DNA of 64,000 nt from an uncultured Phycisphaerales bacterium. Lineage in GTDB: Bacteria > Planctomycetota > Phycisphaerae > Tepidisphaerales > Tepidisphaeraceae. The translations under genes and the position numbers were made by a program. Under the pieces are notes generated by a model that saw only the letters and a program-made list of their open reading frames with translations, ran no database searches and had not been told where the DNA came from. The stretch lies in NCBI GenBank assembly GCA_963755915.1, contig CAVWLP010000003.1:320001-384000 (forward strand). The letters are read 5' to 3'. Position 1 is the stretch's first letter. Each line of letters opens with the position of its first letter. Shown here in pieces: positions 3,112 through 55,409 of the stretch.

Positions 3112-3201
3112 GCCGCATCACCTGCGCTGCAATCTATTCGTCAAACCAAAGGAAAACCGTCAGTGCGAAAACGGATCGGAATTCCCCCCTAGGCGTGACG
3201 T

Positions 3202-3360
3202 TTACATCGAGCTGTTCAGCGAGTTCCAGGAGGCCAGCACCTTACCGCCGACCGACCCGATGGTGGCAATCGCCGCCACCACGATCAGCCCTGCGATCAG
3301 GGCGTATTCCAGAACTTCACCGCCCGATTCATCGCGAAGAAAAGAAAAAATGGTTTTCAT
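3202..3360 (-). CDS. flp: Flp-family type IVb pilin (52 aa, below the ORF-track cut-off)
   Basis: MKTIFSFLRDESG|GEVLEYALIAGLIVVAAIATIGSVGGKVLASWNSLNSSM: classic DESG-xxxxEY-ALI Flp motif. Confidence 0.88.
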   Translation of the reverse strand: MKTIFSFLRDESGGEVLEYALIAGLIVVAAIATIGSVGGKVLASWNSLNSSM

Positions 3361-3566
3361 AGCCGCTCAATCGACCGCCCCCATCTTAAGCTTGAAATCA
3401 GAAAATTTCCTTGGTTTTGGCTCGTGTCCACGATCGTAATTAGTGCGGTGCCTCATTGTCGCCATTACTGTTTGATCGTAGCAATCTTGGACGCCACGCC
3501 CCGCGTTTTCACCTTTAACATCATTTCATTCCCGAATTTGCGTCATTGAAAGATGGGGAATATACA

Positions 3567-5341: not shown

Positions 5342-5406
5342 CGATTTTCCTTCCTTCTGGTTGATTGGTTGGACGATAGGCGCAAAGCAATCCAACTTCA
5401 AATACG

Positions 5407-30240: not shown

Positions 30241-30383
30241 GCTCAACCCTCTTGCCGCGAATACGAACCTGGGACGTACATTGCGAACCGCGGCGGGGGC
30301 TATTTAAGCCTAAAATGGGAGCAAAAACAAGCTTTTTTTTCATCGCGAAAGTAAAGGGAATATGGTGGCAATTTGGCGGGCGA

Positions 30384-30423
30384 CCCCCTCCCCGACCCTC
30401 CCCCGGCGTACCGGGGGCGGGGG
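30384..30423. repeat. REP-like GC-rich stem-loop
   Basis: CCCTCCCCCGG-cgta-CCGGGGGCGGG imperfect palindrome preceded by CCCCCTCCCCGA, downstream of the halogenase gene. Confidence 0.55.
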
Positions 30424-30448
30424 AAATAAGGAAGGACGGTGCCGTGGA

Positions 30449-31950
30449 TCAGCGCTCGGCGTTCCACTTCCAGCCCGGGTGATGGACGAAGCGGAGTGCT
30501 TCGGCGGGGTCGAGCCCGTTTCGCGCGGCGGCGCGATATTCCTCTCGATGCCGACTCCAGTTTTGCTTCTCAAGATCGGTAGAGATGTGACGACCCTTGT
30601 AAGGTACCCTGTTTCCCACCAGCATGACCAGGAACCCTTCGAGGCCAAACTGGTTGCCGGTTCCGGACATATTTCGCAGCGTGTGCCGGCAGAGGCCGGT
30701 GGGGCCGTTTTCCGCGTAAAATTCCAGCAGCTCGGCGGAGCCGGAGACGTCGGTCTCGGCGTTGCAGTGTTGCCAGAATGGGGTTTGGAGCATCGTGTTA
30801 AAGCGGTAATGAAATGCGAGGAAGTCGCGGATTTCGTCCCAGGTTCCGGCAGCGATTTTGTTATACATGTTGCGTGCCGTGGGAGCGGGCGAGAGTTCGG
30901 ACTGAACGAGGATTTCGACCAGGGCCTGGGTGCTGCCGCAGATGACCATGAGGGCGGTCGATTCGAGGGGCTCGACGAATCCCGAGGCGTTGCCGATGGA
31001 GACGACGTTGTCGACCCACGCCCGCTCGAATCGGCCGGAGCGGAACTTGACGACGCGGTCCCATGTTTTGGCCTTGGAATTCTTGCGTGTGAATTCGGCG
31101 TGGGCCTGGTCATCGGAGAGAAAGCGGGAGCTGAAGACGTATCCGCGGTTGATGGCGGTTTCGTGTTCGATCTGCCAGCACCATCCGGCGTCCATGGTTT
31201 CGGCGGTGGTGTAAGGGAGAATCGGTTCGCCGTCGCGCTGCCAACTGCCTACGACGGCGCGGTCGCAGATGAGGGATTTGTCGTAACTGATCCAGGGCTC
31301 ATTGAGGGCGCGGCCGAGGAGTTCGCTGCGGAAGCCGCTGGCGTCGATGAAGAGGTCGGCTTCAAGGCGGCGGCCGTCTTCGAGGATTACGGCGGAGATG
31401 CCCTGCGGACCGCGCTCGGCGCCGCTGGTCTTGGCATCAATGAAGTCGATCCCGATTTCGCCGCGACCGCTTCCAGGCAGGCTACGAATTTCGGATTTTC
31501 AATGTGAAACGCGTGCCAGGGAGGGATTTCCGGACCCGGGCCGTTTTGCTGACGTGGGAAGGCTTTTTTCTGTGCCATCAGCGCGGAGCAGAGACTGGCG
31601 CTTTCGAATTCCTCATCGCAGTAGAAACCGTTGGGACGAGGTAGGTCCGGGAGCTGCACGTCAAGCTGAAACTCAAAGCCGTAATCGAATTGGCCCCGCG
31701 GTCCCCAGAGGAAATGGATGCCCATTTTCCAGGTCGGGCGCGTCGTGGAATAAAAGTGCTTGCGGCTGATCCCCAGGTATTCAAACAGAAATTTGGGAAG
31801 GGCTGGCGTGGTGCTTTCACCGACGCCGATTACGCCGATATCGGGACTGCGCACCACTCGAACGCCCAGAGCGGGGATCTTGCGCTTCAGTGAAATGGCG
31901 GCGAGCAGGCCGGCATTTCCAGCGCCGAGGACCAGAATGTTTTTGATCAT
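30449..31950 (-). CDS. Tryptophan-halogenase-family flavin-dependent enzyme, frameshift near 31455
   Basis: LGAGNAG, IGVGEST, PTWKMGI (catalytic Lys), FIDASGF, GWCWQI, GFVEPLEST. Confidence 0.9.
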
Positions 31951-32207
31951 AGGCGATTCGGGGTGAAAGGCCGGATTTACCCTACGTTTGCCGGCGATTC
32001 TATCGTCATATTTCCAGGCTGCAATCAAAATCGACGGGGTCGGGCGCTGGAGGGAAACTCCTTTCCAATCCGGCCTGCGGCGCGATATACTTGCAGACTG
32101 ATAGTAAGTAGGGTCCTGGCGGTCTGCATTCGAGGAAATGGGCACCCGGTCCTGATATACTTTCGCCGAATCGAACTCTGGTCTCTAATTGGCGGACGAG
32201 GCGCGCA

Positions 32208-36792: not shown

Positions 36793-37635
36793 GTGAAAAA
36801 GCTGCGCTCATACATTCTCGGCAACGCTTCCACCGCGGAATATCAGCGGCTGGATCTCATGTCCAAGATTCTTGATCCGTGGACGAGATCATTGATTGCC
36901 GGACTTGGTTTGCGGGAGGGTTGGCATTGCCTGGAACTGGGGGGCGGCAATGGGAGCATGACGGAGTGGCTGTGCGAAAAGGTCGGGGCGTCGGGAAGCG
37001 TTACCTCGGTGGACATCGAACCGAAGCTTATTGCACTGGTGCCGGCGCAAAACCTTGTGGTTCGGCAGACGGACGTGCGGGTCGCGGATTTGCCGGGAGG
37101 GCCGTTTGACCTCGTGATGTGCCGGGCGATGCTGCACCAGATTTCGGAGCACGCGCAGGGTGTGCTGGGCAAAATGGCGGCGGCAGTGAAACCCGGCGGG
37201 TGGCTGTTTGCGTGCGAGCCGGATTTTAACCTGGCGCGGACCTGTGAGCCCAAAGCGTGGGCGAAGACATGGGATGGAATTTTGAAGTGGGGAAAATCGC
37301 AGGGCGTTGACTGGTTAATCGGCCGCAGGCTGCCGGGAATGGTAAAGGCGCTGGGGCTGGGATATCCCGAAGTGGCGACGCACGTGCCGAGCATTCGGGG
37401 GACGACGCGCGATGCGGAATATTTTCAGATGTTTCTGGAGATGGTGCGAAAACGCGTGCTGGAATCGCGGTCGGTGGATGCGAAAACATTCGATGCGGCT
37501 GCCGCGGCGCTGCGGGATCCGGATTGCTGGACGCAGTGCTGGATGCTGACCGGCGTTTGGGTGCGCAAGCCGTGGTTTGAACGCGATCAATCAGAGCAGC
37601 GGGTCGTTGATCTTGCGCTTCATCAGCAGGTTTGA
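36793..37635 (+). CDS. Class I SAM-dependent methyltransferase
   Basis: CLELGGGNGS, SVDI, FDLV, VKPGGWL. Confidence 0.88.
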   Translation: MKKLRSYILGNASTAEYQRLDLMSKILDPWTRSLIAGLGLREGWHCLELGGGNGSMTEWLCEKVGASGSVTSVDIEPKLIALVPAQNLVVRQTDVRVADLPGGPFDLVMCRAMLHQISEHAQGVLGKMAAAVKPGGWLFACEPDFNLARTCEPKAWAKTWDGILKWGKSQGVDWLIGRRLPGMVKALGLGYPEVATHVPSIRGTTRDAEYFQMFLEMVRKRVLESRSVDAKTFDAAAAALRDPDCWTQCWMLTGVWVRKPWFERDQSEQRVVDLALHQQV

Positions 37636-38163
37636 GGGGAGGCTCGTGGGGTCCAGCGCTTTGCGGGCGGTTTCCACGCCGGCGACCGGGAGATTTTTGG
37701 GGTCGAGCAATCCGAGTTGAACAAGCGCCGAGGCCTGGTCCCAGTGGATGTGCTCGTGATGAATTTTTCCGCCTTCGAAGGCGACGACCACGATCGTGAC
37801 CAATTCGATCCTCCGGCCGGTCGGCGGCACACCGGGAAGCAGCCAGTCCATTTGCTTGGTGTGGGTGCAGCGGAAGACGAATTCATCGACGATGCGGTCG
37901 TAGCCGACGGTCCGCGAGATGGGGAGGAGTTCGACATCGGGCGGCATCGAGGGAATGAAATACGTGCCGTAAAAGTGCTCGAGCTGGGTGCGACCAACGC
38001 CGCCGGTCAGCACCGGCACGTGGTTGACATAGGGGCGGGCGACCATGGTATCGCAGGAAGCGGCGGCATTTTTGTCCTGGAATTCCGCGGCCAGATGCTT
38101 TTCCCACAGATCGACCATCGCCAGTTGATCGGGCGTGAGCTTTGAAAGGTCGAGGGCGAACAT
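37591..38163 (-). CDS. SnoaL/NTF2-like ester cyclase-family protein
   Basis: WEKHLAAEF, PYVNHVP, SRTVG, VDEF, PGVPPTG, HEHIHWDQAS. Confidence 0.8.
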   Translation of the reverse strand: MFALDLSKLTPDQLAMVDLWEKHLAAEFQDKNAAASCDTMVARPYVNHVPVLTGGVGRTQLEHFYGTYFIPSMPPDVELLPISRTVGYDRIVDEFVFRCTHTKQMDWLLPGVPPTGRRIELVTIVVVAFEGGKIHHEHIHWDQASALVQLGLLDPKNLPVAGVETARKALDPTSLPSNLLMKRKINDPLL

Positions 38164-38393
38164 GACGACCACCTCCCCAAAAGAAGTAGTTTGTCCGGGG
38201 ACGCCGGGACGCGCGCAGGCATTCTAACACAAGGCGTGCAGTAATCAGTTATCGCTCCCATTTTACGCGGGGAAAATAATTCATTTGCTTCAAAACAGCC
38301 GCTGGGCGCAAAACCTGCCATGGGGCCACAAGTTAAGTGATGTTTCGGGTTCTTCGATAAAGGGCAATATCGGTCTTTTGCCTTAAGCCAGGA

Positions 38394-40012
38394 ATGCCAA
38401 TGGAAAGCAGCAATCAAAGTGTTTCAATCCGCTGGGGACTCGTAGCCGTCCTGCTCGCAGCATCGATTGCGCGCCTGTCGACGCTGAGCGACCCATTTAC
38501 CCGAAACCACGAAAGCACCGCCTGCGGCCCCATGGTCTGCGCCGCCCGAAATATGGTGCGCTACGGATTCTTCGCCTGCCATTTCGGCTACGTTGAAAAC
38601 GCCGATCACGTCGATCCGAGCCAGTTCACTTATTACAACCACCATCCGCCCCTGGTTCCGATACTCGAGGCCCTCAGCGCCAAGGTCTTCGGCGATGTCC
38701 CCTGGGCTTACCGCCTACCCGGCGCTCTCTGCTCCGTGCTCACCAGCGGGCTGCTCTTTGTGATGCTGGCGGCAAGTTTGACTGGCGCGTCGGGCTCGCC
38801 ACGGCGCTGCTTTATACCCTCTGCCCTTTCATCTGGATGTTCGGCGACATGCCCGACGTCGTCGGCCCCCACATGATGCTCTTCGGACTCCTCACCCTGG
38901 AGTGCTATTCACGCTGGTCCGACGAAGGCAACGCAAGGTGGCTCCCCTGGGCCGTTCTCTGCTGGTTTCTGGCCTTTATGTGCGACTGGCCGGCCTTTTT
39001 CCTCGTCCCCATCCTCTGCGCCGATTATGCCATCAAGCATCCCTGGCGCGCCTGGTGGCGGATGATTCCCTACTGCGTGATCGCCGTCCTCGTCCTCGGA
39101 TCGACCATCGGCTGGCTGATGGCCGGTGGCGACAACAGCGTCATCTCCGAAACCATCCGCAGGGTCAACGGCGGCGCCTCCGACGCCGGCCTGAAGATCG
39201 GCCTGGCAAGCTGGTTCCGCGTCGCCATCGGTTATTACGTTTATCACACGTTCACCCTCCCGGTAATTCTGCTCGGCCTGGCCTATATTCCCGCGGTGGT
39301 GTGGATCGTTAAGAAACACCGCTCAGAGTTGGCGGCCAATGATACAACGCTGATGATGGTCTGCTGGGGACTGATGCACGTTCTGATCGGCTTCCAGAGC
39401 AGCTACCAGCACATGTGGGTCTGGTGCGTCCTGGTGCCGGGCGCCTGCGCCGCCGCCGTCCTGGGCGGACGGGCCATCTGGAATATTCTCCCCGCCAAAA
39501 TTCAGACCAGTTCCTACGTGCCCTTTACCGCCGGAGCGCTGGCGGTTGTCTTCATCGTCTCCTGTTGCCTGGAGGCCAAAACCCTCAGCAATCTCGGCCT
39601 GCCTGTCGAGGAAAACAGCTATACAATGAAGGACATGGGCGAGGTGATTCAGCAGACCGTGCCCCCTGGCCAGGGAGTTTTGACCAGCGATATGAGCGAC
39701 CCCCTGACGCATCAAAGCGAGCCGGCCCTGTGGTTCTACTCCGACCGCCAGCTTCGCAACGGCATTCGCAGCGTCAGCCAGCTTGATAATTCACTGGGTG
39801 AGGGGGACTACCAGCTCTTCTACGATTTCGTGCAGCCCGGCGGCCCGGCGCCTTTGTGGTTCATCATGCCGCTGGAGCATCACGAGCGATTCAAGCAACT
39901 GGCGGCCGCGCTCGACAGCCGATACGCCCGCTGGCAGAAAAACGGGTTCTTCATCTACTACCTCCCGGAGACCCCCGCCGACGTAGGCAAGGTCGCCGAT
40001 ACCGGCAGGTAG
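38394..40012 (+). CDS. ArnT/PMT-like GT-C membrane glycosyltransferase, frameshift near 38775
   Basis: ARNM...YYNHHPPL...KVFG...WAYRLP N-terminal motif; about 11 hydrophobic segments. Confidence 0.75.
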
Positions 40013-40025
40013 ACTTCCACCACTT

Positions 40026-40835
40026 TTAGTTTGCGTCGGCCCCCGCCGACGCACCCACAAGCTTGCCCACCGGTGCAGCAGTCTTGCGTGGCTCATGCCA
40101 GAGCCGCCAGCGAAGGCGGATCGTGTCGAGGATCATGGACCAGCCGTGCTTCACCATGCGGACCGTGGTCGGGTCTACATATTCGAAATGGATCGGCGTC
40201 TCCTTGATCGTGAGATTGGCGGCGCCGGCGTAGGCGAGGAGCTCTACGTCGAAGAAGAAGCCGTCGGTTACGATGTGTGCGCCGATTCGATCCCACGTTT
40301 TGGCGGTGAAGCCTTTCAGGCCGGCCTGGGTGTCGAGGATTTTTATGGGCAGCATCCAGCGCAGGAAGGCGTTGAAGGCGCGGCTCATGCGGTGACGCTT
40401 GTAGATGTTAGGGAAATCGAGGGGGCTGATCAGGAACCGCGAATCGGGGTGGGCGCGGTTGACGACGACCATGTCGGCCCCTTCGCGCAATTTCGCCAGG
40501 ACCTTGACCGCTTCCTCGGGGGCATACGCCAGATCGGCATCGGTGAAGATCCGATACGGCGTCTGCGCCCGCCACATGCCGTTCTTCACCGCGAATCCCT
40601 TGCCGCGGTTCTTGGTATAGCTCTGCACCGTCATCCGCGGCTCATTGCGCGTAAGCATCTCGAGCTTCGCCGAGGTATCGTCCGTGCACCCGTCGCAGAC
40701 GAACAGAACGCAGAATTCGGGATTCACCGCAAGAAAGGCGCTGAGCCTTTCCACCGATTTGGCGATGAACGCCGACGCGTTATAGGTCGGAATGACCAGT
40801 GTGCAGATAGGATTGGTCCCAATTTGAGCATTCAT
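40026..40835 (-). CDS. GT2 polyprenyl-phosphate sugar synthase (dolichyl-P glucosyl/mannosyltransferase-like)
   Basis: LVIPTYN, CDGCTDDT, NRGKGFAV, FTDADL, DTQAGLKGF, GFFFDVELL. Confidence 0.88.
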   Translation of the reverse strand: MNAQIGTNPICTLVIPTYNASAFIAKSVERLSAFLAVNPEFCVLFVCDGCTDDTSAKLEMLTRNEPRMTVQSYTKNRGKGFAVKNGMWRAQTPYRIFTDADLAYAPEEAVKVLAKLREGADMVVVNRAHPDSRFLISPLDFPNIYKRHRMSRAFNAFLRWMLPIKILDTQAGLKGFTAKTWDRIGAHIVTDGFFFDVELLAYAGAANLTIKETPIHFEYVDPTTVRMVKHGWSMILDTIRLRWRLWHEPRKTAAPVGKLVGASAGADAN

Positions 40836-40897
40836 ATTTCTCCCGGTCCGTTTTTAGTTCTTGCCAGTTTGTTATCGGTCCAAGCGCATAAATCCTG

Positions 40898-42535
40898 TTA
40901 AAACCTGTAAGTGAGCCCCGCGGAGAGCCCGTTGCCGGAATAGGGCACAGACGATCCGGGGAGGTAGTAGTACGTATACGACACCGACAGTTGGAGACGA
41001 TTCCCAATGTGCAGCGTGGGCCCGATCGACAGCTCCACGCCGAAGTCGGCGGGGCTCAGGATGTACAGGGGATAGACATACATCGGTAGCGTAAGCCCGG
41101 GCACGATCTGCGGCTCGGCACGCAAAATCGGACCGACGGTTTGGAAATCCGCCCGGCTGCTGTAGGCGGTGTTTTGCCCATACTGGGTCATTTCGTAAGC
41201 GCCGCCGAGGCGGATATTCCAGGTGTAATTGAGGACGTAATAGGGTTCGACGTGGAGGAACTGGCGGCTATTGCCGTCGTTGTATTCGGCGTAGGTGTAG
41301 ACGACGTTGGCGGCGATGTAATCGGTGAACTGGTAGCCACCACTGACGCCGGCGACGTCCTGCGAGAGGTCGTTGGCGACTGTGTACATCGTGTCGTTAA
41401 CCGGGTCGTTGAGGCGATACGTTCCGTCGAGCCAGAGCTTATCGGTGGGCTTCCAGGTAGCGCCGACGTTGAAGCCGGTGACTTGACGCCCGGGCTGCTG
41501 GAAGGCGTCAACGCCGCCGCGGAAATTCCATTCGCTGTTGACGTGATATTCGAGGCCTAGGTCCTCCTGGTAGCGGATCACGGGGCCAAAGCTCATCTTG
41601 TTGTTGGCGAAGTAATTGTTGTTGTATTCCGCGTCGATGGCGATGTGATCCGACACCGGAACGGTCAGGGTATTGAACCATCCCATCTGGTGGAACCCAT
41701 CGCTGCCGAAGAAGAGGTAATAGTCGCTGGAAAACTGCACGGCCGTATTGGTTTCGATATTCGAAAGCCCTGTCTTGGCCGTTTCGAATGTCGGGTCAAA
41801 CTCCATCGCCTTGGCGTATTCCTGCCGAGCTTCGGACAGATCCCAGTTGTTCCGGTGAATATCCCCCAGCAGGCCCAGGGCATCGACCGACTTGGGATTC
41901 TTGGCCAGCACCGCCTTGGCAATCTTTTCCGCCTCCGCATCGCGCCCATGGGCGTGCAGGAATTTGGCGTGGGCCAGGAGGATCCATTCCTCATCGACGG
42001 CATTGCGATCAGCCGCTTCGTAGGCTTTTTCGGCGTCCGCGGTCCGGCCCGCGTGATCCAGCGCGGCGCCGAGCTGCGCATAGGTTTCCGCGTCGTTAGG
42101 GTCGTGTCGAATGACTTCGTTGAGAACGTCTATTTCGCGATCGGTCATCCCGGCCGCATCCGCGGCCTTGGCGAGCTCCAGGCCCCAGCTGGTGTCGTTG
42201 GGATCCTGGATGTAGGCCGTGTCGAGATGCACGTAGGCTTTTTGGGGATCGTTCAGTTTGTCCAGATAGATCCAGCCGAGGGTTCGCCGCAGGATGATTT
42301 CATCCGGGCGCGCCGCCAGGGCCTTTTCCATCGCGTCGGCGGCGGCCTGGTAGTCGGCCTTGGTTTTCGTCTGCTCCGCGCGGCTTTCCAGCTCCCACGC
42401 GGAATCCATCAGCGCGTCGGTCTGCTGCTTGGTAAGCGACGGAGTCGTCTGCGCACCCGCGCGGCCGCAAAGCATGGCCAGGGTCGCCAGCGCCAACAGG
42501 ATTCTTGCCGGAGATTTTGGAGAGATGGTTTTCAT
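40898..42535 (-). CDS. TPR-containing outer-membrane beta-barrel protein, putative polysaccharide exporter
   Basis: Signal peptide; about 7 TPR-like repeats; aromatic alternating C-terminal half ending AGLTYRF. Confidence 0.7.
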   Translation of the reverse strand: MKTISPKSPARILLALATLAMLCGRAGAQTTPSLTKQQTDALMDSAWELESRAEQTKTKADYQAAADAMEKALAARPDEIILRRTLGWIYLDKLNDPQKAYVHLDTAYIQDPNDTSWGLELAKAADAAGMTDREIDVLNEVIRHDPNDAETYAQLGAALDHAGRTADAEKAYEAADRNAVDEEWILLAHAKFLHAHGRDAEAEKIAKAVLAKNPKSVDALGLLGDIHRNNWDLSEARQEYAKAMEFDPTFETAKTGLSNIETNTAVQFSSDYYLFFGSDGFHQMGWFNTLTVPVSDHIAIDAEYNNNYFANNKMSFGPVIRYQEDLGLEYHVNSEWNFRGGVDAFQQPGRQVTGFNVGATWKPTDKLWLDGTYRLNDPVNDTMYTVANDLSQDVAGVSGGYQFTDYIAANVVYTYAEYNDGNSRQFLHVEPYYVLNYTWNIRLGGAYEMTQYGQNTAYSSRADFQTVGPILRAEPQIVPGLTLPMYVYPLYILSPADFGVELSIGPTLHIGNRLQLSVSYTYYYLPGSSVPYSGNGLSAGLTYRF

Positions 42536-42536
42536 G

Positions 42537-45500
42537 TTATTGATGGAACTCTCTTGAAAACTCATTTATCGACAAGAACTGCGGTGCGCCGTTTTCAGAG
42601 TCGTGAACGAATATTGGGACGTTGGCCTCATCGATCCCCCTGGTGGCGATAACCTTCAATTGCACCCTGTACCAGCCTGGAACGTCGGGCAGCTCGATCG
42701 CCGCCATCTGGCCGCCCTGCATCGGAGTGATCGTTCCCGCGTCCGGCTTGAAATTCGGACCTGTCACGCTCCAGCGATACTCCACATGATCCAATGGCAA
42801 CGATCGCACGTTCGCCTTGACCACAAACGGCTCACCGGGCCACTGCGCATCGGTCGGATAATTGATTTCCAGGATCTCCGGGCCGGGATTAGTGAAGGCT
42901 CCAAACAGCTTCGGATTCGGATTATGCCAGGCGTCGCGCATCGCGGCGCACACCGGTTTTTCGCGGCCGTCGAGGTCCACCATTCCGAACCAGGTGGCGG
43001 TTCCTTCGTAACGATCGCTCCAGCAATAGGCGATGCCGCCCACGTTGCTCCCCTTATTCGCCTGGATATCCTCGCGCCACCGATCCGCGTAATACCAGCC
43101 CTTCACCGCCGCCGTCGGTTCCAGCAGCCCCTTCTGGCTGTCGTAATGATTGCGGTCGTTGTTCCAGTACCCATCCGGACCAAATTCGCTCACCAGATAC
43201 GGCCGCCCCGGATCGAAGCGGGCGAAAAGCTCGTGAAGGTGCCCAATGTCAGGCTGGTAATACGCATTCACCGCAACCGCATCGAGCGTCGGCGCCCCAA
43301 CCGCGTAGTCGGCAATCGCCCCACCAACCTGGTCAGCCTCCTGCGCGGAGAAGATCGGATGATTAGGATCGAGCTGCCGAATAACCTGCGCCATCCGCTC
43401 CACGAAAAGCACGTGGGCATGCCGAACTTCCGTCAAATACGGCTGCGAATACTTGTGCTTCAGCAGCCCCCAAACTTCGTTGCCCAGGCACCACCCCAGC
43501 AGCCCCGGATGATCGTGATAAGCGAGAACCGTCGATTCAATTTGCGCCTGATATTCCTGCTGTTTGGCCGCATCCGCCAGGTAATTCTCGTCCTGCATGA
43601 ACCAGAACCCGTACATCACCTTGAGATGATTTTCCTGTGCCGCGTTGAGGATATTGCGGTCCGACCAGGTCCGCCCATACCGGCGGATGGTGTTGCCTCC
43701 CATTTCGTGAATGATCGAAAAATCGCGACTAAGCTGGGCCGAGCTCAACGGCACGTTGGCGTCGCGCCAATCCTGCCCCGGATTGTAAGCAATTCCCTTG
43801 ACGTAGAACGGCCTTCCATCCACTAACAGCGAGAAATGCCCCGGCGAACCGCTGATGCAGCGCGACTGATGATGCTGGGGATGCAAATCAAACCACAGCG
43901 GCAACGATTGCGCTGCGCGTGGCCGGCGCTGAAAGGCTGAAGATTCAGCGTCCGCTTTGTTTCCGACAACCAGGACGAATCGTCGGTCGGCGGCGCAATC
44001 GCATTGTTGTCGTCGAGAACGACGCTCTTGATCTCCGGATAGCGCACGCTGATGTCGGAAAGAGCATCACGCTCCCAATTGGCCCCCAGCTCATTGTTGG
44101 CCGCATTCAGCCCGGTAATCATGATCGGTCGGTGCCACTGGGCAATGCGCGGATGGAAGGCGTCATACTGCTCGGCAAAAGATTTCCTCGGCGAAGCCGG
44201 ATCCTGGGCGATCGGCAGGGCGATCCAGTCGATGAATCCCGCCTGCTCCGGAAAATACGTCGCCGCGGTCTTGGGCGAAGCCGGAGACCAGACCCACCCA
44301 ATATTAGCCGCACCTTCCGTTTGGAGCGTCAGCACCAGGTGCTGCCAGGCGGCGATAAAATCCGCCGGTTTGTTGCCGGTACGGGCAGACCACGGCATTG
44401 CCGCGTTGTCCGGCTGCGGAGCGAAGGAGATAAGAATCGGTTCACCAAACGCCCGCGCCGAGGCCGCAAACTGGTGAATGTACGCGTCATAATTCCCCGC
44501 CCCGATGCGCTGGAGAATCGGATGCCTCTGCCACGAATGCATTGCAGTTCCATCGACGGGCAGCCAATTCAGCATCGGGATCGCCCCGCCGCGGCGGAGC
44601 TCCTTAAGCTGGTCGACCGGCAAATCCGCGCCCCAGGGCAAATCAACGGCCACGATCCGGAACTGGATATCAAACTGCAACTGGAGATTGGCCGTGCTCG
44701 GCAGCCAGGCCTCTTTGCCCGCGCTCAGGTGTACGCCCGTGTAAAAGCCTCCGGTATCCGGCACCAGCGTGTCGTCGAACGCATTTTCCAGACCGTTCCC
44801 CTGCGACGGAACGAGGTTGATGAAATAAATCGCCAATGTTGCCGTCGCGATTCCCAGCGGAAGCAGCCGTCCCTCGCGGAACTGCCGCAGCATCGCCCGA
44901 TACGCCATTCCCGCGCCGCGCCGAACGCTCCGGGCGATCTGGATGACGAATCGCAGCCGCTGAAGCTGCCGGCGAAGTTTCAGCAGCGTTACCTGCTGCG
45001 AAGTGACGGAAATATGTAAAAGCGAAATCGAGTTGAGCACCGCCAAAACCGCCATGAGCAGTGCCGGCGGAGAGCTGTCGTAATAAACCCCGAAGCATGC
45101 CGCGAGGATAAGAACGCCGGCCGCGACGAAGTTGGGCAGCGTGATCCTGCCCGCGTTGGAAGGTTCATCTTCCTTCGGCGTCGGGATATACGGAACCTTG
45201 ATCCGAAACACCGCGCAGAAAACGCCCGCCAGATAAATCCACCAGGTCGCGATCGCCAGCGACCCGCCGGCGATATGCATCCCGCGCTCCTGCGGCTCCA
45301 TGAGCCACCGCTGCACGCGCAGCCGCACCAGCGTCGCGAAAACCAGCATCGGCGCGAACCAGAGCACCAGTTCCGTCGCCGTCGCCCGCCAGGCGATCAG
45401 CCCCACGGTGAGCGTGGCGATCGGCACCAGCATTTCCAGAAGCGTCACCACGCCGCGAAGAAAGAAAATCGGGCACAGCAGGTAGTGAATGCGCTGCCGC

Positions 45501-46558
45501 CAGGTAAAGCCGCTGTAAAGTTTTGGATATTCCTGGAAGAGCAAATCGAACACGCCGCACGCCCATTTGATCTGCTGCTTGTAAAACGCCGCCAGCGTCG
45601 AGGGAACCAGTCCGCGGGTGAGAATCTCCGGCACGTAAACCGAGTGCCACCCCTTCGAATAGAGCCGCATCGACGTGTGCATGTCCTCGGCGAGTCCCGG
45701 CGCGTGCCCGCCGATGCTGTCCAGCGCCGTCCGGCGAAAGACGCAGTTTGCGCCGATGGCCTGTGTCGTGCCGCACCCGTTCATCCCCATCATGTAGGGG
45801 CCGTAAAAGTGATACGACTGCTCCGCCGCGCCTCGCGCCACGATCGAATCCGACTGATTCCGATACGCCTGCACCGACTGCACAAACCCAACGGATGGAT
45901 CCTCGAAATATCCCAGCGTCCGCTCCAGCAAATAGGGCGAAGGCTCATGATCTGGATCCAGAACGACGGCGATTTCCCCCGTCGCCTGCCGAAGCGCATT
46001 ATTGATGTTCCCCGCCTTGGCGTTCTTCTTGACGGTGCGCGTCACGTGAACAACGCCCAGCTCCTCGCAGATCGCCTTGAGAATCGGGTCGTTGCCTTCG
46101 TCGCAAAGGTAATTGGTATGCGGATACGGGATCGCCACCATCGCCTTGAGCGTCCGCACGATCATCCCGCGCGGCTCACCCGGGCAGGCGGTCGTCAGGA
46201 TATCGACGGACCATTTCCGCCGCGCCTTCAATACGCGGGGAATCGAAATGTGAAAATAGTTGTACCATTCAAACAGCCAGCAGGCGGCGCGAAGCCCCAG
46301 CGCCAGCGTGAGCCCCAGATAAACGATCGGATCGCCGATCCGGCCCGGACTCAGCAGCCAGGCCATCAGCGAAATCAGCGAACCCGCGGCCAGCAGGATC
46401 AGCACCCGAAGCTTGAGCAGCTCCCGCCGCGGCAGAATCGTCGCGCGGACCGGATGCGCCGGCCACTTGTAGGGCGGCCAGCATTCGACGGCATCAAGTG
46501 CCGAAGCCGGCGACTCCGCCGACTCTGCGTCGACAATCTGGGTGTCCAAGAGACTCAT
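42537..46558 (-). CDS. Processive GT2 polysaccharide synthase fused to a GH26-like domain and a clan GH-A (GH2/GH158-like) domain; probable frameshift near 43910
   Basis: CDEG, AKAGNIN, DPDH, AED, QQIKW, YIPTPK; GNYDAYI...WVWSP; GNTIRRY, LGNEV, SEFGP. The two ORFs overlap and the second lacks a signal peptide. Confidence 0.8.
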
Positions 46559-46691
46559 GCTTCTCCCATACTCCTCGGGCGATCTTAAGGTCGCCTTCGA
46601 TTGTGCTGTCCAACCCCGGTGCCTTCCGGCACTTATTCGATCGGTTTAATTCACGGATGGATTCAACGCCCGATCCGTAAAGCTGTTCCGT

Positions 46692-48179
46692 TTATGACGG
46701 CGAAAGCCCGAATTCGTTGATGTCTCGATAGACCTGTTGCGGCACAGCCTTCGGTTGCACCGGCGCCGCCGCCCCCAGGAAATATTTCCGATACCGCGCC
46801 TTCGGCAGCGCGTTCACGATAGCCACCATTTGCTTCGCCCCATGGGCCTTCAGCAGCTCCCGGCACTGCCCCGCCGCAGCCAGAGACGCCCGCCGCGCGT
46901 TCATCACCAGCAGCGTCGCCCGGCATCGCGCCGCCAGCGCCAGCGTGTCTGGATTCCCCAGCGCCGGACCCGCGTCGAACATCACGAACCGATACGATCC
47001 CGTCAGTTGCCGGATCACGTCCGACAAAGCGCTGCCCTGAAGCTTCGCCGCCGAAACCGACGACGGCTTTCCGCACGGCAGCAGGTGCAAATTCTGAATG
47101 TGCGTCGGCCGGATGAAATCCGACGCCACCAGCGGATTGTCCAGCCCGTCATAAAAGCCCGGCGAAGGATTATTGTCCCCGAAAATCTTGTGAAGGATCG
47201 GCGAGCGAAAATTCACGTCGATCAGCAAAACGCTTTCCCCCGCCATCGCGATCGTCGTTGCCAGGTTCACCGCGACGGTAGAAGTCCCCTCCCCACGCGA
47301 TGGAGAAGTCACCAGCAGCGAACCCGCCTGCCGGCTCACGTTCGCCCCGAACAGATTCAGCAGCAACGACCGGCACAAAAGCGCCCCTTCGGATGCCGGA
47401 TCGATATAAGCGGCCAGACCCCGCCCCGCCGTCGAGCTTTCTGGAAGAATCGGCAGATGCCCCGCCGTCTGCAATCCCGTCCGCTCAAAAATCTGCGCCG
47501 GTGTGCGTATCCGATCGTGCGAAGAGCCCGCAATCAGTTCGATCAATATCCCCAGAATCACGCCCGCCGCCGCTGCAATTCCCAGCATCTCCCCAAACGA
47601 CGGATTCTCCGGCTGAACGTCCCCGCTGGCCAGCGTGCAATCCGCAACGGCCTTGGGATCGATCAGCAACATACTCATCCCCGTCAACGGATCATTCCTC
47701 GTCGCCGACGCCAGTGACGCCAGCACCGCGTTGATAATCTTCGCCGCCTGGTGCGGATAGGGCGTATGGGCCACGATCTTCAGTTGATCGTCCTGCGTGA
47801 CTGTTTGAATCGTCAGCATGCGCCTCAGCGATTCGACCGTGTTGGACCCCAGTCCCAGAATCGCGAGCTGCGAAAGATCGAGCCGCCGCCCCGCCGCGGC
47901 CAGGACTGCATCAGACCGCGCCGCATCGGCAAGCTGGTCCAGATATTCCGCTGCCGCAACGCCCGATTCCACGTTCTGATCCGTCTGCGAAATGTTCGCA
48001 AACGACAAAACTCCCTGCACCTGGTAGGAGGGCTGGGATGCGTTCATATACGCCAGCATCCCCACCACTGAAATCAGCGTGGTAAAGAGGATACCGAAGC
48101 GTCCGTGAACCACTGCACTCACTAAACGGGATGTCCACGAAGCGCCGCGCGGTGCGCTAGTCTGTCTGCTACCAATCAT
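46692..48179 (-). CDS. Wzc/CapAB-like polysaccharide co-polymerase with degenerate BY-kinase domain
   Basis: TM-periplasmic-TM then VTSPSRGEGTST, LLIDVNFR, NLHLLPCG, MFDAGP. Confidence 0.82.
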   Translation of the reverse strand: MIGSRQTSAPRGASWTSRLVSAVVHGRFGILFTTLISVVGMLAYMNASQPSYQVQGVLSFANISQTDQNVESGVAAAEYLDQLADAARSDAVLAAAGRRLDLSQLAILGLGSNTVESLRRMLTIQTVTQDDQLKIVAHTPYPHQAAKIINAVLASLASATRNDPLTGMSMLLIDPKAVADCTLASGDVQPENPSFGEMLGIAAAAGVILGILIELIAGSSHDRIRTPAQIFERTGLQTAGHLPILPESSTAGRGLAAYIDPASEGALLCRSLLLNLFGANVSRQAGSLLVTSPSRGEGTSTVAVNLATTIAMAGESVLLIDVNFRSPILHKIFGDNNPSPGFYDGLDNPLVASDFIRPTHIQNLHLLPCGKPSSVSAAKLQGSALSDVIRQLTGSYRFVMFDAGPALGNPDTLALAARCRATLLVMNARRASLAAAGQCRELLKAHGAKQMVAIVNALPKARYRKYFLGAAAPVQPKAVPQQVYRDINEFGLSPS

Positions 48180-48481
48180 AAGTGCCCTTCAATACGGAGA
48201 TGCCCGAATAATCGGTTGTTGCGACCGGAATATAAACGCGCCAAACCCGACCGACCAATGAATCCGACCGATGTGAAGCCCTTGCGACCCCCCCAAATGA
48301 AAAACTCGGAAATCTGTAACGAGGACGCCAGCAAAGAGCCGAAACGAAAGACCCGATAATCCGCCTGGTCCGATAATTCGGCGCGGCCCAACACAGGCAT
48401 TATCGCCCCCAGACCCAAATAATGTTTTTGCCTTGGCCCCAAATTAGGGCGATATTCTCTCGTAATCTCACTGGAGTGTTA

Positions 48482-49671
48482 GTGAACCTCTCGATGCGGG
48501 GATTCCGCGAATATCTGCTGCTGATCGTCTCGATGCTCGCCCTCTTCTGCGCTGCCCACAATCGTGCGCCGCCGATGGTCTGATCGTCGGCGCCGATGTT
48601 TCCGACTGCGCCTATTTCCAGGGTCTTGGCGCTAAATATATGGATCACAGCCAGCCCGCGGACATCTTCTCCATCCTCAAAACCCACCACATCAATCTCG
48701 TCCGCCTCCGCCTCTTCACCAGCACCAATCAGCAGGCGCAGCAGGCCCCCTATGACAGCATCAACAACATGCTCTACACGCTCCCGCTCGCGGTTCATGC
48801 CGCCCAGGCCGGCTTGCCCTGGATGCTCGACTTCCACTACTCCGATCTCTGGGCTGATGCCAACCACCAGCTCAAACCCGCCGCCTGGAAAGGCCTCACC
48901 TTCTTCCAGCTCGAACAACGCATGTACGAATACAACCGCGATTGCATCCGCACCTTCCGCGAAGCCGGCGCAATGCCCCAATACGTCCAGATCGGCAATG
49001 AAATCACCTCCGGCCTCGTCTGGCCCGACGCCGAAACCGACACCCCGGGCCACTGGAAACGCCTCGGCAGACTCCTTAACGCCGCCATCCGCGGCATCCA
49101 CGACGGCGCCGGCTCACAAAAACCCAAAATCGTCATCCACATCGGCAGCGGCGATCAGTGGGACGTCATCCGCGCCTTTTTCGACCGCCTTCGCGATCAG
49201 CAGGTGGACTTCGACGTGATCGGCCTAAGCTATTTCCCCGACGCCACCAGCAAAATCGAAGATCTTCAATCAGCCATGGCCGGCGCGACAGCACGATATG
49301 CCCGCCCGGTCATGATCGCTGAAACCGCCTTTCCCTGGTCCCAGAATTCCGCCGATGCCGACGCCGGTGAACCCATCCTTGGCCTGACGCCCGGCGCTCA
49401 CGGACAAGCGCAATACGCCGCGATGCTTTGCCAGGCAATGGCAAGTGTCCCCAACCAAATGGGCATCGGAATCGTCTGGTGGGGCGCCGAATATGAAAAC
49501 ATAGGCCGTCTCGATTTGAACGGCTACGACTGCAGCTCACTCTTCGACGGCTCCGGGAATGTTCTCCCCGTGATCGACGTCCTCGGCCGCTTTGCGATAA
49601 AAGGAAACTCGCTCGCCAACAATGCCGTAACCCAAAGTCTGCAAGCATCCGCCAAACATCTCGCTCAATAG
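48482..49671 (+). CDS. GH53 endo-beta-1,4-galactanase, frameshift near 48570
   Basis: Signal peptide; GADVS, VRLRLF, LDFHYSDLWAD, VQIGNEIT, DFDVIGLSY, IAETA. Confidence 0.9.
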
Positions 49672-50355
49672 CCGCCCCTGCTCAGGCGTCAAATCGCGCC
49701 TCCACCGTCCGGGTTGCGCACTCCCAATATGATTATCGTGAAGCAACGTCACGCGATCGCGCCGGTGATTATCGATGCCCACGTCAACCTGCTCCGCCGG
49801 ACGCGAAGCAAGCTGCCCGCAAATCTTCCGGCTGAATTCGATATTCGTCTGCCCATCGATCCACTCGACTATTTTCTGATCGACCGGAACCTCCAGATGC
49901 TCTGCAATCTTTGCAATTTCCCGTGGCGGATCTTTAACCATCTCTTCGTACCGAACAAACAGAGTGCGCTGCGAATCCTGGTAAGACCTCAGCAGGCAAT
50001 CAAAGCTATGCGCCATGCGCCGCACCGAAGCCTCAAACCCGCCGGCCCAGAACACCAGATCGGAAGCCACGCAATCCCGCGGATCGCGATAGGTGCACAC
50101 CGCTTTCACGCGCCCGCTACGAATCGACTGAAGCGCAAAGGGCCCAAGCTCATGCACCTTGATAACCGCCGACCCCGAGCCGAGCGTTGCCTCCATCTGC
50201 AGAAACCGATCCAGCGAATTTTCCCCCAGGCACGCCATCCCGAACGGCTCCCCGCGCCGCTTCGCGCGGATTTGCCCCAGCAAACGGCAGACGTTGTACG
50301 ACCAGGTTGACCCCGAGCGGATAACGCCGTCACAAATAAAAATGGGCGATATCAT
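49537..50355 (-). CDS. Sulfotransferase-domain protein
   Basis: GVIRSGSTW (5'-PSB), IKVH, YRDPRDCVAS (3'-PB), VRYEEM, GRWRRDLT. Confidence 0.8.
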   Translation of the reverse strand: MISPIFICDGVIRSGSTWSYNVCRLLGQIRAKRRGEPFGMACLGENSLDRFLQMEATLGSGSAVIKVHELGPFALQSIRSGRVKAVCTYRDPRDCVASDLVFWAGGFEASVRRMAHSFDCLLRSYQDSQRTLFVRYEEMVKDPPREIAKIAEHLEVPVDQKIVEWIDGQTNIEFSRKICGQLASRPAEQVDVGIDNHRRDRVTLLHDNHIGSAQPGRWRRDLTPEQGRLLSEMFGGCLQTLGYGIVGERVSFYRKAAEDVDHGENIPGAVEE

Positions 50356-50627
50356 CGAACAAATTCGATTCGCTTGCGCGGTTGTCTTCACTTGGGAAGT
50401 CTGCGTCGCCCCCCAGGACGAAAAATCCAGACTAGTCCGCGACGACTTAAGCGAACATGAAGAAAATCCCCAAAATGCAGAACCCGACTCGATTACTCAG
50501 ATTTCCTGTTGAGCCGCCACCCCCAGGGAGAGTGCTTTCCCGAGCCCTTCCCAACCCGCGATCCCACCGACTCCCCCCGGATACTCCAAGCCAAGAATCC
50601 CACTTTGGCACGCATCTTGCGCTTTGC

Positions 50628-53135: not shown

Positions 53136-55409
53136 TCACTCCCCCCATCCCGCCCACGCCGTCCGCAACACCGCTTCGACGTTCCGCGCAAACCGTTTCG
53201 CATCGCACAGCGGCGACGCCACCATCCGCGCCCGCAGATTTCTCCGCACCTCCGCAAGCCGCGGCAAATCCCCCGCCGTCTTCACCGCGATCTCCACAAA
53301 TTCCTCCTCCGTTCCCGCCGCCAATTCCCCCATCCCCAGATTGCTCAACTGGCTAAACCCCGCCCGCCCCACCGTGGTCTTCCCAACCAGCGTCACAATC
53401 GGCACCCCCATCCACAGCGACTCCAATCCCGTCGAGTGGCTGTTATACGGAAACGTGTCCAGCCCAAGATCGATCCGGCCAAACAGCCGCAAATACTCCG
53501 CCCTCGCCCGTCTCCCCGCAAACTCAATCCGCGACCCTTCAACCCCCCACTCCGCGAATCTTCCCAGGATTCTTTCCCGTACCTCCCCTTGAAGCGCCAA
53601 CATCAACAGCCGCGAATTCGGCACCCGCCCCAAAACCTTCCCCCACAGCTCCAGCGCCTGCTCGTTCATTTTGAACGGCACATTCAGACTCCCAAACGTC
53701 ACATACCCCGCCCGCAACGCCGGCAATTCGTTCACCTCATACCCGTGCGCCACCTCCATTGCCTCCGGATCAAAACACCAGAAACTATCCGCCACCCGCA
53801 GCACCCGCTCTGAACCACCCTTCTCTTCTCTTTCCCCCGGATCCAAATATGGATCGCTGATCCGGTAATCGATCGTCTTCAATCCCGTCCCCCCCGGGTA
53901 CCCCGCAAAGGTCATCTGCACTGGCGCCGGCTTACGTGCAAAGACCAGCAGCCGATGGTTAACCGTATGCAGCGCCAGATCGATCAGAACATCAATCCGA
54001 TCCTCCCGAATCCGCTGCGCCGCCGCCGCATCGCTCATCTCCCCGATCTCAACCCAATGCTCCGCATACGATTTAAATTTCTCCGTCATCACCCCCGGCC
54101 CCGCATGGTTCGAGTAACAAAAAACTTCGAATTCCCCACGATCATGCTCACGGATCAGCGGCAGCACGTTTCGCCCCACAACATGGGCACTAAAATCCGC
54201 CGAAACATACCCGATCCTCAGCCGCCGATTCGCGTCTCGATTGTTGACATGCGGAACGATCGCCGATCGCAGCGGCTGCGCATATCGCTCGTCCCAATCC
54301 GACTCCAGCCGCCGAATCGAATCGGCATCCATACCCGGATGATAAAAAGAGGTAAGAATCAAGCTGCTGCCAATGTACGGATCTTTCGGGTCAAGCTCCT
54401 GAGCCCGCGAAAACGCCGCCATCGCCTGATCAAATTCTCCCAAATCGCGCAACGCCAGCCCCAGCCCATGATGATTATTCGCGGATCCGGGCGCCAGCGC
54501 GACGGCCTTCCGACACGCCTCCACCGCCTCGTCACACCGGTCCAGCGTCGACAGAATTCTCCCCAGCGTCGCCAGCAGATCGGCATCGTCAGGCTGAATC
54601 TCGACCGCCTTCTGCAATTGTTCCAGCGCCTCTTCCCGCTTCCCCTCTTCAAGCAGCAGCCCGCCCAGATGCCCGCGGGCGACGGCCGAATTCGGCTCCA
54701 TCGCCACCACCTTCCTGAACTGCTCAATCGCTTCCCCTCTTTGTCCCGCCTTCGCAAGCGCCCCACCCAGGTTCATCAAAATCACCGGCGACTGAAGATT
54801 GGCCGATGCCTTACGATACGCCGCGATTGCCCCCTCCCGATTCCCCAGTTTCAACAGCACGCTTCCATAGTTCGTGAGAATCTCCGCCGACTCCGGCAAC
54901 TGCGCCACCGCCTTTTCGTAAATCGCCCGCGCCCCTTCGAGATCCCCCTTCTGAACCCGGAGCTGGGCCAAACCAATCCACGCATCCCGCCGCCGCGGCT
55001 GGACCTTCAGCGATTTCTCATATTCCGCCGCCGCTTCCTCCCCGCGCCCGATCTGCGAAAGCAGCGTCGCCGCCCCCAGATATGCATCACTATCCTCAGG
55101 CCGAAGCCGCGCCGCCGCGCGATACGAATCGACCGCTTCCTGCGTCTTTCCCGACGCCGCAAGCACTCGCGCGAGGTTCTTATGAAAGTCCGGCACGTCC
55201 GGCGCAAAAACGATCGCCCGCCGGATCAGTTGTTCCGCCGACGCGTTGTCCCCGCGCTGATGGAAAACCAATCCCAGCAGGTGCAGAACCACGGGATCAC
55301 CCGGCCGCTGCGCGAGGATATCGCGGTAAATCCGCTCCGCTTCGGCAAGCTGTCCCCCCTGATGCAGCTTTACTGCGCCGGCAAGCCTCGGATCGGCGGC
55401 GGGGATCAT
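53136..55409 (-). CDS. TPR-containing O-GlcNAc transferase-like protein (GT41/SPINDLY family)
   Basis: About 10 TPRs; RLRIGYVSADF, DVLIDLALHT, KPAPVQ, GYPGGTG, LDTFPYN, LWMGVP. Confidence 0.92.
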   Translation of the reverse strand: MIPAADPRLAGAVKLHQGGQLAEAERIYRDILAQRPGDPVVLHLLGLVFHQRGDNASAEQLIRRAIVFAPDVPDFHKNLARVLAASGKTQEAVDSYRAAARLRPEDSDAYLGAATLLSQIGRGEEAAAEYEKSLKVQPRRRDAWIGLAQLRVQKGDLEGARAIYEKAVAQLPESAEILTNYGSVLLKLGNREGAIAAYRKASANLQSPVILMNLGGALAKAGQRGEAIEQFRKVVAMEPNSAVARGHLGGLLLEEGKREEALEQLQKAVEIQPDDADLLATLGRILSTLDRCDEAVEACRKAVALAPGSANNHHGLGLALRDLGEFDQAMAAFSRAQELDPKDPYIGSSLILTSFYHPGMDADSIRRLESDWDERYAQPLRSAIVPHVNNRDANRRLRIGYVSADFSAHVVGRNVLPLIREHDRGEFEVFCYSNHAGPGVMTEKFKSYAEHWVEIGEMSDAAAAQRIREDRIDVLIDLALHTVNHRLLVFARKPAPVQMTFAGYPGGTGLKTIDYRISDPYLDPGEREEKGGSERVLRVADSFWCFDPEAMEVAHGYEVNELPALRAGYVTFGSLNVPFKMNEQALELWGKVLGRVPNSRLLMLALQGEVRERILGRFAEWGVEGSRIEFAGRRARAEYLRLFGRIDLGLDTFPYNSHSTGLESLWMGVPIVTLVGKTTVGRAGFSQLSNLGMGELAAGTEEEFVEIAVKTAGDLPRLAEVRRNLRARMVASPLCDAKRFARNVEAVLRTAWAGWGE

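Follow-up and report, generated by a model that had tools for sequence, protein, structure and literature searches.

A probable BcsB-free, synthase-dependent secretion system for a beta-glucan in an uncultured Phycisphaerales bacterium

An uncultured Phycisphaerales bacterium carries a gene cluster that probably encodes a synthase-dependent secretion system for a beta-glucan, one that does without BcsB and whose product likely contains beta-1,3 linkages. The cluster lies in a 64,000-nucleotide (nt) stretch of contig CAVWLP010000003.1 (assembly GCA_963755915.1, positions 320,001 to 384,000 of the forward strand), called the window from here on, which has a high GC content and belongs to contig 3 of a three-contig, 6.6-Mb genome with 81% marker completeness. 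Its core is formed by a synthase, in which a BcsA-like family 2 glycosyltransferase (GT2) is fused to a GH26-type and a GH158-type glycoside hydrolase (GH) domain, and by a predicted outer-membrane exporter made of tetratricopeptide repeats (TPR) and a beta-barrel. In the window and in related loci a shortened relative of Wzc is encoded directly upstream. Few synthase-dependent systems are understood, namely those for cellulose, poly-N-acetylglucosamine (PNAG), Pel and alginate, and they set the rules for how a biofilm matrix is built.

The fused synthase and its exporter

The original prediction, made from the letters of the window, had proposed five genes in this region: a Wzc-like protein, a GT2-GH-GH fusion, a TPR/beta-barrel protein, a polyprenyl-phosphate GT2 and a convergent GT-C. 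All five reading frames were found at the predicted positions, as follows (lengths in amino acids, aa; PCP, polysaccharide co-polymerase).

46692-48179, minus strand: Wzc-like gene, encoding a short PCP-2-like protein of 495 aa
42537-46558, minus strand: synthase gene, 1340 aa after base correction
44810-46558, minus strand: N-terminal part of the synthase (residues 1-583), BcsA-like GT2 and membrane helices
43919-44761, minus strand: middle domain of the synthase, GH26 lichenase-type TIM barrel
42537-43918, minus strand: C-terminal part of the synthase, GH158-type TIM barrel and immunoglobulin (Ig)-like domain
40898-42565, minus strand: TPR/barrel exporter gene, 555 aa
40026-40835, minus strand: small GT2 gene, 269 aa, soluble, Pfam Glycos_transf_2
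38394-40012, plus strand: GT-C gene of the PMT_2/ArnT kind, 539 aa after base correction

The four minus-strand genes are co-oriented and the plus-strand GT-C gene converges on the small GT2 gene, the two stops being separated by the 13 nt that had been predicted. The proposal that the barrel gene starts 2 nt past the synthase stop is true for the second ATG of the barrel gene (42535; synthase stop at 42537), and a start at its first ATG (42565) makes the two genes overlap by 29 nt. The remaining gaps on the minus strand are 133 nt between the Wzc-like gene and the synthase gene and 62 nt between the barrel gene and the small GT2 gene. A scan of positions 37500-49000 for promoter-like signals (0 found versus 3.7 expected) and terminator-like signals (14 versus 10 expected) was uninformative.

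In the uncorrected window, each of two genes is split into two frames, the synthase with 911 and 455 aa, the GT-C with 160 and 391 aa. Contigs from four public soil short-read runs were aligned to positions 38300-48300, and over this interval they reported only two indels: an extra C behind 38771, present in one contig each of runs X1, X2 and X4, and an extra C behind 43912, present in one contig of run X1 at a depth of 3.8. Coverage by these contigs is low, and run X1 possibly stems from the sample that gave the assembly. Because these insertions coincide exactly with both break sites, the frame breaks are assembly errors, and both the synthase fusion and the GT-C gene are intact, single genes. 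Adding the two bases by script gave single frames of 1340 aa for the synthase and 539 aa for the GT-C. The homologues of the synthase are likewise single proteins, 113 of the 120 best listed being fused and 1178-1393 aa long. A pseudogene and a programmed frameshift were also considered and were ruled out by the presence of the missing base in short-read contigs at both sites.

The N-terminal 345 residues of the synthase match Pfam GT2 families and Cellulose_synt. The NCBIfam CelA model was matched at E 1.1e-52, under its cut-off, and the bit scores against TIGR03030 (179 versus a cut-off of 699) and PRK11498 (145 versus 992) place the protein outside the BcsA/CelA equivalogs. When a profile of 24 relatives was compared with BcsA (4hg6), the match reached E 5.9e-56, and the DPD, ED and QQxKW motifs (QQIKW in the window) turned out to be invariant in all 24. 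Hydropathy analysis indicated eight hydrophobic segments, two of them before the GT2 domain, five after it and one further helix at residues 565-583. Segment 433-451, the third after the GT2 domain, which by comparison with BcsA we take to be an interface helix, is followed by a YxPTPK motif that resembles the FxVTxK gating loop. On these sequence features, the protein is best taken for the inner-membrane processive synthase of a synthase-dependent system.

PilZ and BcsB were looked for by profile. No PilZ domain was matched in the five proteins by Pfam, the six matches in the genome all lying outside the window, and BcsB (PF03170) had no match in the 81%-complete genome, whereas control genomes gave matches. 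GH8 was not found in the Pfam scan of the cluster proteins. At the position that PilZ occupies in BcsA, the window synthase has a basic linker with 10 Lys/Arg in 46 residues, which leads into helix 565-583. This extra helix, together with the positive-inside rule, suggests that the segment beyond it, with the GH domains, is periplasmic.

The middle domain of the synthase is related to endoglucanase H of Clostridium thermocellum (Lic26A, 2bv9), with E 1.7e-36 for the family profile and E 1.1e-6 for the window domain alone. Residue alignment placed a Gln opposite the acid/base Glu109 and a Gly opposite the nucleophile Glu222. Across 24 relatives, both glutamates are kept in seven, only the nucleophile in eight and neither in nine, and these nine include the six relatives closest to the window. 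Since both catalytic glutamates are replaced, the window domain is probably a catalytically dead module that binds or guides glucan. The state of the C-terminal barrel is different. It matched the GH158 enzymes 9oro (E 5.7e-26) and 6pal (E 5.2e-19) in a sequence search of the PDB, and the profile alignment runs to residue 424 of the 424 in the solved chain, and therefore includes the Ig-like domain. The NE and SEFG catalytic motifs are intact in the window and invariant in 24 of 24 relatives. According to passages of the GH158 study, these enzymes act on beta-1,3- and mixed-linkage glucans and require a beta-1,3 link between subsites -2 and -1 (PMC13195107). An endo-beta-1,3-glucanase activity is therefore predicted for the window domain, which would be the periplasmic glycoside hydrolase of the system, and, because the family needs a beta-1,3 link, a product with beta-1,3 linkages, curdlan-like or mixed-linkage, is predicted as well. 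The idea that one protein polymerises, binds and trims the polymer thus fits its parts: a BcsA-like GT2, a dead GH26-type barrel that is a plausible binder and an intact GH158 domain that is a plausible trimmer.

In the product of the next gene a signal peptide precedes a TPR region of about 6.5 repeats (residues 46-273), and residues 277-554 form a beta-barrel of 16 strands. Pfam matches were to TPR families and OMP_b-brl, and the barrel region of the NCBIfam PgaA model was matched at E 2.5e-6, under its cut-off. An AlphaFold2 (AF2) model built on a 43-sequence alignment reached pLDDT 91.9 and pTM 0.81. When it was searched with Foldseek against the PDB, ranks 1-4 were taken by BcsC (9b8a and 9b8h), PelBC (9h80) and PgaA (4y25), and general porins came far lower in the list. 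Superposition gave TMt 0.69 with PelB (9h80) and TMt 0.79 at a root-mean-square deviation of 3.4 Å with PgaA (4y25). The predicted polysaccharide-export character of the barrel was borne out by these four ranks, and the modelled fold supports its assignment as the outer-membrane TPR and barrel porin of a synthase-dependent system. The family is small, with 29 representatives at E<1e-30 among 1.84 billion proteins.

Conservation, the Wzc-like protein and accessory genes

Relatives of the synthase were collected in a scan that used one genome per species. At least 580 species-representative stretches carry a member of the family, and the best 80, which were kept, come from three phyla of soil and water bacteria and include 72 from Bacteroidota, 4 from Verrucomicrobiota and 3 from Phycisphaerales. 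The synthase fusion is widespread rather than rare. Most of its spread is in Bacteroidota; there the barrel is lacking and the steady partner of the synthase is a separate GH158-like gene. In some genera of this phylum the synthase is shorter, one or both GH domains being absent. In Chitinophaga japonensis (L033, 9866-20107) the module is duplicated in tandem, in the order GH158-like gene, synthase, GH158-like gene and a second synthase with a GH26 match. Within the class of the window's bacterium the distribution is patchy. Among 201 sampled genomes, the fused synthase was found only in the window's genome and in G143, and stand-alone GH158-like paralogues (430-703 aa, 28-34% identity to the synthase domain) occur without the synthase in 28 of the other 200.

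Applied to the best 80 loci, a profile of the barrel family located a barrel gene beside the synthase in six of them (L003, L004, L005, L006, L009 and L083). Six further barrel loci were obtained from a metagenome scan with an alignment of 10 closer sequences. One of the 13 loci that result with the window, L085, starts inside the barrel gene. In all 12 barrel loci that have upstream DNA (the window, L003-L006, L009, L083, L084 and L086-L089), the synthase gene is directly followed by the barrel gene on the same strand. Because these 12 loci come from several lineages, the order of synthase and barrel is more than chance. The PCP-like gene lies directly upstream of the synthase gene in six of eight assessable loci (the window, L003, L004, L005, L083 and L088), although the synthases of these loci are only 54-75% identical. 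In G143 the PCP-like, synthase and barrel genes stand alone between zinc-transporter and Tad-pilus genes. The co-occurrence in other genomes that the original prediction called for is therefore found by synteny, at 12/12 for synthase and barrel and 6/8 for the three genes together.

The protein encoded by this upstream gene had been described as Wzc-like. NCBIfam tyrosine-autokinase models match it, under their cut-offs, and its C-terminal half matches CapAB (PDB sequence, E 2.9e-19) and the kinase domains of Wzc. The AF2 model (pLDDT 71.8) found full-length Wzc (7nhr, E 8e-23) and CapAB (TMt 0.88-0.90) at the top of the Foldseek list. Membrane helices at residues 28-46 and 198-216 flank a periplasmic domain of about 150 aa, and a P-loop domain resembling those of bacterial tyrosine kinases follows. 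The Walker-A motif reads GEGTST opposite GAGKST in CapB, so that the lysine is missing. This lysine is found in 0 of 9 members of the short family, which have Thr, Ser, Cys or Arg instead, versus 5 of 5 long Wzc relatives; the orthologues of L083, L005 and L088 likewise have Arg at this position. In place of a tyrosine cluster the tail has only scattered tyrosines, and in the short family a deletion of about 240 columns of the alignment falls in the periplasmic hairpin. With the Walker-A lysine, the tyrosine cluster and the long hairpin all missing, the protein is best called a shortened, apparently kinase-dead PCP and not a working Wzc. What stands of the earlier description is the fold, the helix layout and the place of the gene as a conserved operon member in Phycisphaerae-type loci; the kinase hallmarks are lost.

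For this short PCP form, a search of 5.8 billion proteins yielded only 8 clusters. The longest contig of four of these clusters has the same size as that of a synthase homologue (25509, 32759, 2596599 and 6187), which suggests that the four share contigs with synthase homologues. Co-folding of synthase residues 45-545 and the full-length PCP-like protein, with a separate alignment for the two chains, scored 0.00 in two runs made without controls and counts neither way. Among the scanned reading frames of at least 100 aa in the window, none matched a Wzx, Wzy or Wza family, which agrees with the original prediction that these proteins and BcsB are not recognisable here. Loci of Pontibacter and Cesiribacter (L017, L018 and L077) with Wza-Wzc genes beside the synthase were considered as support for a link between synthase and PCP and were rejected, as the genes run into ordinary Wzx/Wzy clusters. 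The same caution applies to a Chthoniobacteraceae metagenome-assembled genome (MAG), L007, in which positions 1-4132 encode a lysine-bearing Wzc, a short outer-membrane polysaccharide export (OPX) protein (Poly_export/SLBB, 239 aa) and a separate beta-barrel of 459 aa. These genes lie 6-9 kb from the synthase on the opposite strand, and the contig ends right after the synthase. Their layout recalls the composite OPX/beta-barrel translocon described in PMC9601211.

The two remaining genes of the cluster are accessory and not part of the core. The original prediction had counted a polyprenyl-phosphate GT2 and the GT-C as members of the system; the GT-C gene adjoins the cluster in 4 of the 13 loci (the window, L004, L003 and L085) and the small GT2 gene in 3 (the window, L004 and L003). 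The small GT2 has no membrane helix by hydropathy, and its NCBIfam matches (AglJ, ArnC, dolichyl-phosphate hexose transferase and PpgS) are weak and all under cut-off; it may be a polyprenyl-phosphate sugar synthase. The GT-C has multiple membrane helices by hydropathy. Its N-terminal piece matched Pfam PMT_2 at E 5.2e-7, and in the L085 orthologue the match spans the complete PMT_2 domain (E 1.8e-14). The GT-C gene occurs in three arrangements. It converges on the end of the operon in the window and L004, lies upstream of the PCP-like gene in L003, where a transposase separates it from the GT2 gene, and in L085 lies 37 nt downstream of the barrel gene in the same orientation. Six other genomes of the family have GT-C matches (24-31% identity), all without the fused synthase. 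In L003, L005 and the Cytophagales locus L046, an Acyl_transf_3 gene comes right after the barrel or synthase gene instead. The operon's 3' end thus looks like a variable position for genes of modifying enzymes. Such a position is consistent with a possible decoration of the polymer.

Mechanism, known systems and rival readings

In the mechanism proposed here, the 1340-aa inner-membrane protein would polymerise a sugar nucleotide, most likely UDP-glucose, by means of its BcsA-like GT2 domain and thread the chain through its own membrane channel. The basic linker and the extra helix, standing in the place of PilZ, would put three extra domains into the periplasm. The dead GH26-type barrel would serve as a chain-binding guide that takes over part of the job of BcsB, the GH158 barrel would cut, release or re-join the nascent chain, and the Ig-like domain would be the third. 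The polymer would then leave the cell through the TPR and 16-strand barrel protein. In Phycisphaerae-type lineages the kinase-dead PCP-like protein probably scaffolds or couples the machine, and the GT-C and the small GT2 would form an optional module that may decorate the polymer with lipid-carried sugars on the periplasmic side. A bolder version is tentative and on balance doubtful: in a trans-envelope machine of an undescribed kind, a ring of kinase-dead PCP subunits and the dead hydrolase domain would together replace BcsB and the gating by cyclic di-GMP (c-di-GMP) and dock the synthase to the pore, so that a curdlan-like or mixed-linkage glucan cut in cis by GH158 is secreted and, in some lineages, glycosylated by the GT-C. 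If true, synthase-dependent polymerisation and a co-polymerase scaffold of the Wzc type would here be joined in a natural hybrid for the first time.

The architecture keeps the synthase-dependent plan of synthase, periplasmic hydrolase and TPR/barrel, but it is distinct from each named system. With the Bcs machinery it shares a processive GT2 with D, D, D and Q(Q/R)xxW, BcsA-like helices, a motif like the gating loop, an outer-membrane TPR and 16-strand barrel protein and a periplasmic glycoside hydrolase. It differs from Bcs in lacking PilZ, BcsB and GH8, in carrying its hydrolase modules fused behind an extra helix, in a TPR region of about 6.5 repeats, far shorter than that of BcsC, and in having a PCP-like protein in the operon. 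The PNAG (PgaABCD) and Pel (PelB/PelC, PelA) systems also combine an inner-membrane synthase, a periplasmic processing enzyme and a TPR and 16-strand barrel. In contrast to them, the window synthase is BcsA-like and not of the PgaC/D or PelF kind, no deacetylase is present, the processing domains are in cis on the synthase, and a search for PilZ found no c-di-GMP receptor. With Wzc and the PCP-2a family, the PCP-like protein shares the fold and the layout of two helices around a periplasmic domain. Unlike them, it is without the Walker-A lysine, the tyrosine cluster and the long hairpin, there is no Wza, Wzx or Wzy in the window, and the gene belongs to a synthase operon.

Closer in predicted product, to judge from the GH158 and GH26 lichenase-type domains, are the curdlan and mixed-linkage glucan synthases. 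The curdlan synthase CrdS, of the CrdS/CrdA/CrdC system, is a BcsA-type GT2 without PilZ that makes beta-1,3-glucan. BgsBA and RiGT2 are presented in PMC13438883 and PMC10374906 as BcsA-type GT2 systems, also without PilZ, for beta-1,3 or beta-1,3/1,4 glucans, and BgsBA is there said to use a membrane-fusion protein and TolC. Unlike the window synthase, these systems are not known to have fused hydrolases or a TPR/barrel exporter. NdvB-type enzymes share with the window synthase the presence of a beta-1,3-glucan-active barrel of clan GH-A and a GT2 in one polypeptide (PMC11005184). Their domain order is reversed, their barrel is GH17, no exporter is known to be co-encoded and the product is periplasmic or cyclic. 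Promonan of Sphingomonas (PMC11340318) was considered too; it is made by a Wzx/Wzy pathway and has no bearing here. The literature, supplements aside, gave no account of a GT2-GH26-GH158 fusion or of a synthase with a PCP-like partner, in keeping with the expectation of an undescribed architecture; the supplementary similarity network of the GH158 paper (PMC13195107), which lies outside that search, might show a fused clade.

Several observations weigh against the proposed system or parts of it. The GT2 sequence yields neither linkage nor sugar, its best named matches being cellulose synthases that all fall under the family cut-offs, and the GH158 and GH26 assignments speak to what the hydrolase domains bind and not to what the synthase makes. 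Placement of the GH domains in the periplasm draws on hydropathy and the positive-inside rule only, and no c-di-GMP receptor was found in the cluster when PilZ was searched for. The barrel lies within 10 kb of the synthase in none of the 72 Bacteroidota loci among the best 80, and export through this pore is therefore not general to the synthase family. Neither of the two assessable Verrucomicrobiota MAG loci, L006 and L009, has a PCP-like gene upstream of the synthase. As to decoration, the small GT2 scores are weak against the cut-offs (35 versus 529 bits for ArnC, 29 versus 375 for the dolichyl-phosphate hexose transferase and 25 versus 370 for PpgS). The GT-C has no match in two genomes that bear the core, G143 (92% complete) and G203 (the genome of L005), and the small GT2 is missing from the same two. 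A GtrA-type flippase (PF04138) was not found in the window, and the genome has one sub-threshold match, on another contig.

The same observations feed three other explanations. The product could be cellulose or another beta-1,4-glucan, with the cis hydrolases playing the role of BcsZ and the family names misleading as to linkage. In its favour, the GT2 domain has the cellulose synthases CelA and BcsA as its nearest named relatives (at the E values given above), the best structural match of the exporter is BcsC, and the beta-1,4 bonds of mixed-linkage glucan are cleaved by GH26 enzymes of the Lic26A type. This is nevertheless unlikely, since the family matches fall far under the curated cut-offs (179 versus 699 bits for TIGR03030), the genome lacks BcsB, the protein lacks PilZ and no GH8 accompanies it; moreover, the sole hydrolase domain with invariant catalytic residues belongs to GH158, which requires a beta-1,3 link in the passages cited (PMC13195107). 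It is quite unlikely that the product is instead an osmoregulated or cyclic glucan of the periplasm or envelope, as with NdvB, for which the GH158 domain would act as a transglycosylase that cyclises or branches the chain. GH17-GT2 fusions appear as cyclic beta-1,3-glucan synthases in parts of PMC11005184 and PMC10237404, the Pfam match of the C-terminal barrel includes the GH72 glucanosyltransferases, and the absence of the barrel from the Bacteroidota loci would agree with a product that stays in the envelope. Against this, an exporter like BcsC, PelB and PgaA directly follows the synthase in all 12 assessable loci of PVC (Planctomycetes-Verrucomicrobia-Chlamydiae) type, which argues for passage across the outer membrane here, and GH158 enzymes of solved structure use the NE and SEFG motifs for hydrolysis according to passages of PMC13195107.

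A third explanation leaves the synthase and barrel together and makes neighbours with other functions of the rest, the Wzc-like gene being, for example, a decayed remnant of a Wzx/Wzy system and the GT2 and GT-C a pair for glycosylation of lipid A or protein. Lipid A and proteins are common targets of GT-C enzymes of the PMT_2/ArnT type, the kinase hallmarks are gone from the PCP-like protein, and the GT2 and GT-C genes are missing from most loci and from two core-bearing genomes. It is decidedly improbable all the same: six of eight assessable loci, at the synthase identities given above and including the three-gene island of G143, retain the PCP-like gene directly upstream of the synthase, the short lysine-less family turned up in only 8 protein clusters, and the GT-C gene stays near through three rearrangements, in L085 on the same strand and 37 nt after the barrel gene. 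The BcsB-free secretion of a beta-1,3-containing glucan remains the favoured reading. It raises the questions of whether a synthase equipped with binding and cutting domains of its own can dispense with BcsB, what purpose a kinase-dead relative of Wzc serves, and how outer-membrane pores are swapped within one synthase family. Should the polymer prove to be a beta-1,3 or mixed-linkage glucan, the cluster would also offer a compact route to commercially interesting polymers.

Flanking genes and further sequence errors

The flank at 3546-36725 of the window is rich in genes for the degradation and uptake of plant polysaccharides. It holds a pectinesterase, GH43, a GH51-like arabinofuranosidase and parts of a sugar ATP-binding cassette (ABC) transporter, together with a Laminin_G/arabinofuranosidase protein of 1601 aa and two large PATR-repeat proteins. 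Mobile elements are found at 20810-22893 and 24092-24943, an IS21-type pair (integrase core and IstB ATPase) and a DDE transposase. On the other side of the cluster, a GH53 gene (endo-beta-1,4-galactanase family) at 48640-49671 is divergent from the Wzc-like gene. A GH53 gene is also present in the distant metagenome locus L085 (3500-4645), where it converges on the GT-C gene; the coincidence may be due to chance or may hint at the sugar that the GT-C handles. Further along, 53139-55409 encodes a protein of 757 aa with many TPR repeats and a GT41 (O-GlcNAc-transferase-like) domain, and a sulfotransferase gene (49537-50391) lies between it and the cluster.

Single-base assembly errors seem to extend beyond the two sites that were checked with short reads. 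A tryptophan-halogenase-like gene in the region of 30340-32145 is in pieces, its profile being matched only at positions 1-175 of 458, and an aldo-keto reductase frame and ABC permease frames in the window look truncated. The 95%-identical relative L004, a long-read soil MAG, has at least seven broken genes in 12 kb, with the barrel gene broken into three fragments and those for GT2, GT-C, GH53 and the sulfotransferase into two each. In L003, a long-read Phycisphaerales MAG, the GT-C orthologue (5084-6737) is split in two at about the same site as in the window. That the split is shared suggests sequencing errors that recur in one and the same context, and not biology.

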